64,000 nt of DNA from a virus: the UHGV virus genome UHGV-0371537; one strand, 5' to 3'. Shown here one piece after another: positions 27,932-28,856 of this stretch (within the stretch, counting starts at the first letter, position 1; every line of letters starts with the position of its first letter). A program made the position numbers and the translations under genes. The notes under the pieces are model-generated. The model worked only from the letters and a program-made list of their open reading frames with translations, did not search any database and was not told the DNA's origin.

Positions 27932-28340
27932 TATACCACATCGATGGGATGGGTGGAAAGACTACACACTTCGCACTGGTACTGCCTTATGGGAGAGCGC
28001 GTCAGGAGTCGAACCTGAAGTCGTCGGCGTAGAGAAAGCTATTTGCATTTCACTATCCTCGCCGCGATTTTCTTAACTTCCTAAACACCCGATTACGAGA
28101 GAGTCGGCATGCACACCTTCTAACTCTTCAGGAAGTCACGCCCAAAATATGATTTGCGATGATGGACCCATTCCATCTGGGGCTGGGTGAGTGGGAATTG
28201 AACCCACAACGCTTGGCTCGCTTTCCCCACCATTCAGGCCACCCAATTCCAGGAGATAGTCACCTTTGCCGTCGATGAACTGTGCCAGTCTTCACCCTGG
28301 CCTCCACTCGCGTCTGGGATTTCCGCGATGATCGCAAATT

Positions 28341-28429
28341 TGGCGGAAGGTGAAGGATTCGAACCTTCGGGGGCTAAAAGCCCCACTCGATTAGCAGTCG
28401 AGTCCCTTAAACCTCTCGGGCAACCTTCC
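28341..28429 (-). tRNA. tRNA-Ser (anticodon GCT), type II with long variable arm, CCA encoded
   Basis: Hand-folded cloverleaf: acceptor GGAAGGT/ACCTTCC, anticodon stem CTCGA/TCGAG with loop CTGCTAA, variable stem-loop GGGGC-TTTTA-GCCCC, T-arm GAAGG-TTCGAAT-CCTTC. Confidence 0.75.
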
Positions 28430-28856
28430 AGTGTTAGCCCCTCCCTGTCTCCGTCCAGGCATCCAGTAGGAATTGAACCTACACGAGGGGGTTATTTGGC
28501 ACGAGTTAGGGGATTCGAACCCCAACATCCCGGTGATCAATCCGGAACCCTTCACACTTTAGAACACCAGTTTCTTCGCCAATGCCCTATAGAACAGAGG
28601 TGAATCTTGCCGGGTGACCAAACGGAAATCTCGTGATAATTTGGACGGGCTTCACACCCGATTGAGCATTTGATCTGCCGCAGCCCAACTCCCCGCGCTT
28701 CTCAGCGCCGATTGGTTAACTGGCAACCAGTGCCTTCTGGTTCGATCTCCTGGAACTTTACAGGCTTCGCGCCCGACCATTTCTGGAAGTTGGGGCATCG
28801 TTTCCGATGTGGAGTCACCCCATTTTTACACAGCTGGCTGCAACGCTTACCGTGTT

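Follow-up and report, generated by a model that had tools for sequence, protein, structure and literature searches.

mascRNA in MALAT1 is a transfer RNA (tRNA) mimic that lies within a longer transcript and serves there as a handle for RNase P. In the tRNA cluster of bacteriophage T4, the tRNAs are followed at the 3′ end, on the same strand, by rnaD (119 nucleotides, nt) and rnaC (139 nt), and the roles of the T4 species 1 and 2 RNAs are still described as unknown (PMC3014915, PMC9697503). RNase P also matures transfer-messenger RNA (tmRNA) and several phage RNAs (PMC11143913), and the tRNA-like Y RNA of M. smegmatis is cut in vitro by RNase P, and in vivo it is both cut and provided with CCA (PMC4201824). 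The locus described here belongs to the UHGV virus genome UHGV-0371537, of which a 64,000-nt stretch (the window in what follows) was analyzed. It contains a minus-strand tRNA array, with four T-arm hairpins standing in the gaps between the recognizable tRNAs. These hairpins are probably the T-arms of four distinct, conserved and non-decoding tRNA-like RNAs, called modules A to D, which are dispersed among the tRNA genes of one minus-strand unit.

The initial annotation had pointed to four T-arm-like hairpins on the minus strand, and a motif scan recovered all of them within a few bases of the positions given there:

28524-28508, minus strand: T-arm 1 (module A), TGGGG-TTCGAAT-CCCCT
28482-28466, minus strand: T-arm 2 (module B), GTAGG-TTCAATT-CCTAC
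28207-28191, minus strand: T-arm 3 (module C), GTGGG-TTCAATT-CCCAC
28018-28002, minus strand: T-arm 4 (module D), TCAGG-TTCGACT-CCTGA

The T-loop signature G53-UUCRA-N-N-C61 and a 5-base-pair (bp) stem are present in all four. The two closest hairpins, which had been placed about 30 nt apart, actually start 42 nt apart. When the segment from 27.85 to 31.25 kilobases (kb) is scanned for a 5-bp stem closing a TTCRANN loop, nine T-arms are found on the minus strand and none on the plus strand, five corresponding to tRNAs and four being orphan. A stricter motif (NNNGG-TTCRANN-CCNNN, with at least 4 of the 5 pairs) occurs eight times in the whole window, always on the minus strand and between 27.9 and 31.0 kb; four of these copies lie in ARAGORN tRNAs and four are orphan. 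The chance expectation, estimated from dinucleotide shuffles of the whole window on both strands, is 0.24 ± 0.54 per window. The observed count is thus far above that of the shuffles and restricted to the tRNA locus, which supports the presence of real tRNA-like elements.

The hairpins are tRNA-like, and their position outside canonical cloverleaves is borne out by the tRNA search programs, none of which folds them as ordinary tRNAs. ARAGORN calls none of the four hairpins, either at default settings or with introns allowed, and Rfam model RF00005 has no match to 27960-28660 (701 nt) even at E ≤ 10. The best Rfam scores in this segment are those of tRNA-Sec, at 20.2 and 16.5 bits for a gathering score of 47. 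Relaxed ARAGORN runs (80% and 70% thresholds, intron and mitochondrial modes) propose Ser(cga), His(atg), “???” and intron models, which were rejected as badly paired and mutually inconsistent. The sizes of the units that contain the hairpins, 138, 53, 186 and 153 nt, fall outside the ~70–95 nt of a canonical cloverleaf. A 7-nt anticodon loop with U33 and a purine at position 37 is seen in none of modules A–D: the consensus folds of B, C and D have no anticodon arm, and module A has an 8-nt RUUGAUCN loop instead, so that no usable anticodon loop is predicted in any of the four. Intron-containing tRNAs, one of the early suggestions, do not fit either, since the ARAGORN intron mode is empty at default and no 7-nt anticodon loop with U33 is present; moreover, removing a single insert restores no cloverleaf, the extra sequence being spread over the D region and a second arm. 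It had also been noticed that matching 5′ acceptor strands are missing at canonical distances. This is indeed the case, but such strands could be found for three of the four hairpins at non-canonical distances.

The same T-arm scan was extended to 13 relatives of Agtrevirus, Kuttervirus, Taipeivirus and Limestonevirus type, at their homologous loci, and afterwards to further ones. The orphan T-arms form sequence families that recur and that differ in their 3′ flanks, and as judged from this recurrence they are not random debris. In the window, the corresponding units are:

27991-28143, minus strand: module D, a 153-nt oversized cloverleaf (RNAalifold, pair counts)
28153-28338, minus strand: module C, a 186-nt multi-helix RNA (RNAalifold consensus, pair counts)
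28497-28634, minus strand: module A, a 138-nt oversized tRNA-like RNA (nine homologous sequences compared)
28438-28490, minus strand: module B, a 53-nt three-way junction (three sequences)

In module D, the acceptor strand GGGCGUG (28143-28137) pairs over 7 bp with CGCGCUC, beside T-arm 4, and the tail is U-CCC rather than CCA. Between the two acceptor strands lies a D domain of 61 nt (28136-28076), which an A-rich linker connects to a second arm of 47 nt (28067-28021). The alignment, of ten distinct sequences from three genera, defines 40 pairs with 98.5% pairing; 12 of them are changed on both sides, including six of the seven in the second arm. None of 500 shuffles matches this value, and slid controls give at most 2. 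A covariance model of module D, R1, gives true members 126–185 bits and ordinary tRNAs no more than 20 bits, and it detects exactly one copy in the window, at 183.9 bits. The module was retrieved at full length by blastn from 233 phage records, at 70–100% identity, in Salmonella, Klebsiella, Escherichia, Shigella and Enterobacter phages, and nearly all rows among the matches listed have no annotation at its position. A looser pattern (GTGAAATGCA...GGTTCRA) returned mostly chance matches in IMG/VR, where only the ~155-kb Ackermannviridae contigs were useful, and a search through neighboring proteins in the same database gave five loci. The idea, raised by eye, of a tmRNA-like tag reading frame in this module was dropped for lack of evidence.

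Module C has a more composite architecture, with the following parts:

within 28153-28338, minus strand: outer stem P1, joining the 5′ and 3′ ends (UUUGCGAU/AUCGCAAA)
28328-28308, minus strand: hairpin 1, with loop GGAAAUCCCAGA and the conserved loop consensus GGAAAUCCYAGA
28305-28252, minus strand: P2 domain with two hairpins (RNAalifold consensus)
28183-28246, minus strand: embedded mini-tRNA of 64 nt, without anticodon arm
28177-28161, minus strand: 3′ hairpin (RNAalifold consensus)

In the mini-tRNA, T-arm 3 is accompanied by an acceptor-like stem of 8 bp (UUGGGUGG/UCACCCAG) and a D-like hairpin (CCUG-AAUGG-UGGG), and the anticodon region is vestigial. The consensus, derived from a seven-sequence alignment, comprises 57 pairs in 11 helices; 98.5% of the cells are paired and 21 of the 57 pairs are changed on both sides, a value reached by none of 500 shuffles, with slid controls at 5 or below. 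Module C was found in 53 records, close relatives being 92–97% identical. Divergent homologues are present in Serratia phage IME250 (71%) and, after tRNA-Gln, in the Schitoviridae Kosakonia phage Kc283; the motif has no match in the metagenome and GTDB genome collections. A resemblance by eye of hairpin 1 (GGAAAUCC) to the CR-I element of RNase P was not retained, evidence being lacking.

The acceptor strand of module A, ACGAGAU (28634-28628), pairs over 7 bp with AACUCGU directly 3′ of the T-arm, followed by G73 and an encoded CCA; alignment of the homologues places the start of the module a few bases past the CCAAAUUA of the preceding unit. Nine members were compared (the window, Vi01, IME250, MK-13, a Klebsiella phage, SeSz-1, two IMG/VR contigs and the Vequintavirinae phage CR9) in a hand-segmented table, a MAFFT alignment of all members having misplaced the 5′ acceptor strands. 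Acceptor pairs 1–5 and 7 are paired in all nine, with four pair types at pair 3 and three at pair 4. Pair 6 is a purine·A mismatch in eight members and C-G in CR9. The T-stem pair 49:65 is likewise U·U in all but CR9, T-stem pair 3 is GC, AU or GU, and every member ends in N-CCA. The module also contains a second conserved hairpin:

28528-28547, minus strand: anticodon-like hairpin of module A, UUCCGG-AUUGAUCA-CCGGGA, with an 8-nt loop

Its 6-bp stem lies at canonical spacing from the T-arm and shows covariation, with CG/UA at pair 4 and UG/UA/CG at pair 2, and the UUGAUC core of its RUUGAUCN loop is invariant in the nine sequences. The loop and its 3′ strand resemble positions 34–43 of tRNA-Gln(UUG), yet they lack U32/U33 and are out of register, so that this loop is not readable as a normal anticodon. 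The anticodon-like hairpin is separated from the D-like hairpin by 16–60 extra nt, the IME250 version having 91 nt. When the loop and T-arm motif was searched in the metagenome and GTDB genome collections, 223 of the 240 matches were ordinary tRNA-Gln(UUG) genes and no clear new member emerged; in IMG/VR, the module A pattern is found only in five close relatives. Two ARAGORN-negative units of oversized tRNA-like appearance on metagenome contigs (L198, ~12380-12531, and L176, minus strand, ~5540-5660) display a UUGAUC-loop hairpin, a T-arm, a 7/7 acceptor and CCA; one of them, of ~140 nt, sits after a tRNA. They may be more distant relatives of this family.

Module B is the smallest of the four. 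It begins 7 nt beyond the CCA of module A and stops 9 nt short of tRNA-Ser. A 6-bp stem P1 (CCCCUC/GAGGGG) encloses the T-arm-like hairpin (28482-28466) and hairpin 2 (28459-28444, CCUG-GACGGAGA-CAGG), the loop of which contains GG. In this layout the T-like hairpin occupies the position of a D-arm and hairpin 2 that of a T-arm, and an elbow of the T-loop/D-loop type is conceivable on this model. Homologues are found in EspM4VN and, between tRNA-Asn and tRNA-Pro, in the Schitoviridae Klebsiella phage HS106 (79% identity), where compensatory changes affect three pairs of P1, one of the T-stem and one of hairpin 2.

From these alignments, each module has its own covariation-supported fold, in which the T-arm is stacked on, or lies beside, an acceptor-like helix and so mimics the “top half” or elbow of a tRNA. 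The mimicry takes the form of an acceptor/T-arm stack in A and D, of an anticodon-less mini-tRNA in C and, possibly, of an elbow alone in B. Covariation across related phages, which had been proposed as a check, supports the helices; it does not support the hairpins belonging to tRNA pseudogenes or intron-containing tRNAs.

The surroundings of the modules can now be described. The locus resembles those of Ackermannviridae phages, the best match being Shigella phage Ag3 (Agtrevirus), which covers 77% of a 1.5-kb query at 96%; none of the database records matches this query from end to end. By this similarity, the source phage is taken to be an Agtrevirus-like member of the Ackermannviridae. No match to the region was found by blastn in 5,426 complete E. 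coli genomes, and the modules are thus not host-derived at that sensitivity. The other features of the array are:

29273-29199, minus strand: tRNA-Asn (ARAGORN, Rfam)
29198-29087, minus strand: module L, a non-tRNA spacer unit with a hairpin and NCCA, then AAU
29086-28944, minus strand: module M, a non-tRNA spacer unit with a 14-bp hairpin and a CCA end
28940-28857, minus strand: tRNA-Tyr (ARAGORN, Rfam)
28856-28642, minus strand: module K, a non-tRNA spacer unit ending CGGG-UGUGAAG-CCCG-U-CCA
28341-28429, minus strand: tRNA-Ser(GCU), canonical, between modules B and C (ARAGORN, Rfam)
27903-27932, minus strand: intrinsic terminator-like hairpin and U-run, closing the tRNA/tRNA-like transcription unit

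ARAGORN finds tRNA-Arg and tRNA-Met farther upstream on the minus strand, and Rfam reports the same five tRNAs above threshold, nothing further. For modules K, L and M, no T-arm was found and Rfam gave no match. Unit borders were set by dividing the minus strand wherever CCA is followed by A/G-A-U/C. The order on this strand is then a leader hairpin with an ACCA end, tRNA-Asn, L, M, tRNA-Tyr, K, A, B, tRNA-Ser, C, D and the terminator. NCCA followed by AAU or a close variant forms the 3′ ends of the tRNAs (except tRNA-Arg) and of modules A, K, L and M; module C differs by a UCA/ACA variant and module D by its U-CCC. One weak promoter-like site and one terminator bracket the array, and the modules are co-oriented with the tRNAs, in line with the polycistronic tRNA transcription unit in which the hairpins had been placed. 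Canonical tRNA accounts for only about one quarter of this unit of roughly 1.4 kb, the remainder being conserved folded RNA.

Several side observations concern the array and its neighbors. Directly upstream of tRNA-Asn (29310-29284, minus strand), the leader looks like a minihelix, with a 6-bp hairpin (GUGCCC-UUGA-GGGCAU) followed by ACCA and AAU, and a weak sigma-70-like site is seen at 29381-29352, near the array start. tRNA-Arg(UCU) (30899-30974, minus strand) is the sole tRNA here without an encoded CCA; GUACC follows its acceptor, and the CCA-adding enzyme of the host would have to repair its 3′ end. A 449-amino-acid (aa) open reading frame (ORF) that separates the two tRNA groups (29403-30752, minus strand) carries coiled-coil-like repeats and a YadA-like membrane anchor domain (E = 1.1e-13); in phage SW16-7, its homologue is annotated “recognition of host receptor”. 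A 220-aa ORF adjoining tRNA-Met (31117-31779, minus strand) has weak endonuclease-type matches (Phage_endo_I, NUMOD3), and may, like segB in the tRNA cluster of T4, encode a homing endonuclease, which could drive cassette exchange. An ORF of 397 aa, located two genes downstream of the array (25864-27057, minus strand), matches PALP (pyridoxal phosphate (PLP)-dependent enzymes) below threshold, at 31.5 bits for a cutoff of 35. A Pfam scan of four flanking ORFs revealed no RNA-processing or Ro-like protein.

Across the sampled Ackermannviridae loci, modules L, M and K are present almost everywhere, with 77–100% identity in a local blastn matrix, and are steadier than the tRNAs, whereas A, B and C are patchy. 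At least six further families that are ARAGORN-negative or borderline (E–J) occur in relatives, some of them annotated as tRNA-Ile, Pro, Leu, OTHER or pseudo, and family E takes in relatives the place held by modules A and B in the window. Families E and F, which flank tRNA-Ser(GCU) in relatives L001–L011 and L019–L023, are tRNA-sized and inconsistently called: their sequences, ACAGG-UUCGAAU-CCUGN-UCUCCCGCUCCA and ACUGG-UUCGAAU-CCAGU-UGAAGCAAYCA, are labeled Ile(gat), Pro, Leu(aag), “???”, OTHER, pseudo or nothing by ARAGORN and in database records. The copies found in other phage families (C in Kc283, A in CR9, B in HS106) all lie within tRNA clusters. From these distributions, the modules recur as shuffled cassettes in the tRNA clusters of several phage genera, and even families, and the mosaic arises by recombination at short common sequences. 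HS106 also carries, between tRNA-Tyr and tRNA-Ser (L145:1746-1888), an oversized tRNA-like, ARAGORN-negative unit of ~143 nt with UACAGAU/AUCUGUA (7/7 pairs), a T-arm GUAGG-UUCGAAC-CCUAC and an A-CCA end.

As to how such RNAs might be made, the modules would be co-transcribed with the tRNAs and excised by the host tRNA-processing enzymes by virtue of their acceptor/T-arm mimic. RNase E would cleave the operon transcript at the A/U-rich CCA|AAUU junctions, which resemble RNase E sites of E. coli polycistronic tRNA precursors, and RNase P would cleave at the 5′ side of the 7–8-bp acceptor-like stems. Exonucleases would then trim module A to its encoded CCA, and the U-CCC end of module D could be repaired by the CCA-adding enzyme. 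The expected products are compact nuclease-resistant small RNAs of ~138, 53, 186 and 153 nt, like T4 species 1 RNA. Our best guess is that the matured modules act in trans, as tRNA mimics occupying host tRNA-binding factors. A wider and more tentative proposal, doubtful as a whole, is that the Ackermannviridae “tRNA cluster” is an operon for seven or more conserved, structured RNAs other than tRNAs (L, M, K and A–D), the T-arm-bearing ones being matured by the host and acting in trans as tRNA decoys or sponges; as part of this same proposal, anticodon nucleases of anti-phage systems, tRNA-modifying enzymes and ribosome/RelA sensing are candidate targets.

A number of points weigh against this picture of conserved, host-matured RNAs. 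The fold of module B draws on three sequences only, and its support is suggestive, not conclusive. In module A, the internal fold of the expanded D region shows weak covariation, and the single-sequence minimum free energy is no better than that of shuffles (z = -0.38). Maturation by RNase P and RNase E is inferred only, from analogy with established E. coli tRNA processing, and modules C and D have no encoded CCA; nothing in the analysis points to any specific target in trans. Phages like P46FS4 (L019:2997-3040, L020:2998-3040) are devoid of C and D, through a microhomology deletion in which GACGCG of module C hairpin 1 is fused to GACGCG of the module D 3′ strand, followed by the CUCUCCC end. 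Dickeya phages carry an A/C chimera, with 5′ A and 3′ C joined inside the T-loop and the T-stem left unpaired. This junction is also evidence for the conserved T-loops as recombination points, and such losses and chimeras in some lineages indicate that the modules are conserved yet not indispensable. The chimera lies on the minus strand of L013 at ~2660-2490, in Dickeya phage phiDP23.1, and its 54-nt match is shared by 19 Dickeya phages.

Among the alternatives, the one that survives best, while still unlikely, takes the modules as purely cis-acting punctuation, i.e., as handles recruiting RNase P or RNase E to release or stabilize the neighboring tRNAs, with no later life. Every module does meet its neighbor, a tRNA or some other unit, at a CCA|AAU junction, module B ends 9–11 nt upstream of the next tRNA 5′ end in two phage families, and acceptor/T-arm mimics are known substrates of RNase P. 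The processing signals evoked in the initial annotation are thus probably part of the explanation, but they leave 50–190 nt of extra conserved structure unaccounted for. A role in trans is favored because module D, the last unit before the terminator, has no tRNA downstream, and because A, C and D keep 60–120 nt of extra conserved helices and invariant loops (UUGAUC, GGAAAUCCYAGA, GUGAAAUGCA) that cleavage does not need. In many relatives, moreover, tRNAs are directly adjacent without such spacers.

The modules could also be decaying tRNA pseudogenes, as had been suggested, left by duplications or insertions in a fast-evolving cluster. The mosaic nature of the cluster, with its deletions and chimeras at T-loops, would agree with this, as would the degenerate cloverleaves drawn by relaxed ARAGORN, the resemblance of the module A hairpin loop to positions 34–38 of tRNA-Gln(UUG) and the labels tRNA-OTHER or pseudo given by annotators to similar neighbors. 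Such an origin is nevertheless very improbable: the parts that are not tRNA form conserved helices, in which numerous compensatory changes are seen between phage genera and between families. Unlike neutral decay, these changes keep the helices (12/40 pairs in D and 21/57 in C, against 0/500 shuffles, and covarying stems in A), the 153-nt module D is kept at full length in 233 genomes at 70–100% identity, and homologues are retained in other phage families.

Equally hard to sustain is the reading of at least module A as a functional tRNA, charged with an amino acid, in which the D region is expanded and the anticodon loop has 8 nt, either a quadruplet or unusual decoder or a Gln-like tRNA escaping anticodon nucleases. 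Module A does have an encoded G/A73-CCA, a 7-bp acceptor, a D-like hairpin with GG, canonical spacing on its 3′ side, a 5–6-bp anticodon-like stem, a 3–4-nt variable region and a UUGAU string similar to tRNA-Gln positions 34–38. However, its 8-nt loop has no U33 in register and a pyrimidine at the equivalent of position 37, 16–60 nt are inserted between the D and anticodon stems, and it is accepted by neither ARAGORN nor Rfam; subgroups vary in acceptor sequence and discriminator, which leaves no single synthetase identity set. Finally, it is hardly credible that the region encodes small proteins, for although the records of Ag3, SKML-39 and a Klebsiella phage have hypothetical coding sequences over their C or D homologues and ORFs of 36–50 aa are present here, indels of 1 nt separate the homologues, substitutions occur in pairs across stems and not at third codon positions, and one ORF overlaps tRNA-Ser.

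Returning to the reading of A–D as conserved non-decoding tRNA-like RNAs, phage tRNA clusters are usually annotated as tRNAs and meaningless spacers, and at least four modules here copy the top half of a tRNA. No Rfam family and essentially no database annotation was found to cover A–D, and nothing specific was found in the literature on Ackermannviridae tRNA-like RNAs or on phage tRNA-mimic anti-defense RNAs. Hundreds of sequenced phages of Salmonella, Klebsiella and E. coli, therapy candidates among them, contain module D without its being annotated. The same reading accounts for the discrepant labels that databases give in these phages (tRNA-OTHER, Ile, Pro, Leu, “hypothetical protein”). 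The only known precedent is that of T4 RNAC and RNAD, to which no function has been assigned in the decades since their first description, and the several independent covarying families now available open comparative and genetic tests of such RNAs. This is timely, since tRNA-targeting bacterial immunity and phage tRNA counter-measures form an active field. If the decoy proposal were true, these RNAs would represent a new class of phage takeover or counter-defense RNA, exchanged as cassettes between unrelated phage families, and would give a first functional handle on T4 RNAC and RNAD.

As to the systems mentioned at the outset, mascRNA-type elements are eukaryotic and serve 3′-end formation of one long RNA, whereas the window combines several mimics and extra conserved structure within a phage tRNA array. 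The resemblance to tmRNA lies in an acceptor stem and T-arm placed around a large non-tRNA insert, in an RNA matured by RNase P. The modules differ from it by their size (53–186 nt) and by having no tag reading frame, no pseudoknot ring and no G3·U70 pair; ARAGORN detects no tmRNA, and direct reading of module D gives no in-frame stop past candidate resume codons. The bacterial and phage Y RNAs of YrlA type (RF02553) are non-coding RNAs that also join a tRNA-like module (T-arm, D-arm and acceptor-like stem) to other helices, and module C in particular holds its mini-tRNA within a larger RNA closed by a 5′/3′ stem. However, YrlA RNAs show a permuted order (T, acceptor stem-loop, D), a Ro-binding stem and a gene beside Ro60, while the modules keep the normal tRNA helix order. 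An identity of module C with YrlA, considered by eye, was set aside for want of evidence. The Rfam YrlA model has no match on A–D, and no TROVE/Ro domain was detected among the four flanking proteins scanned.

The closest parallel is with T4. Like T4 species 1 RNA, the modules lie in a phage tRNA operon, on the tRNA strand and near its 3′ end, and T4 rnaD has an encoded CCA followed by AAU, like the junctions in the window. T4 rnaC, as folded in this analysis, presents a T-arm (CCGGG-UUCGAAU-CCCGG) beside a terminal 7-bp stem with two U·U mismatches. Its large D-side domain and second arm correspond to the plan of modules A and D, not to that of B or C; no T4 counterpart was seen for the 53-nt three-way junction of B or for the 186-nt module C with its internal tRNA-like domain. 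Both rnaC and rnaD are absent from Rfam, model R1 has no match in the T4 locus (L144) and the blastn matrix is empty for T4. As no sequence or model homology links module D to rnaC, the RNAs of the window are classed by a way of working like that of T4 species 1 RNA and are not placed in its family. The kind of element is already known from T4, as stable tRNA-like RNAs in a phage tRNA operon; modules A–D are several new families of it, and B and C have architectures without a described counterpart.

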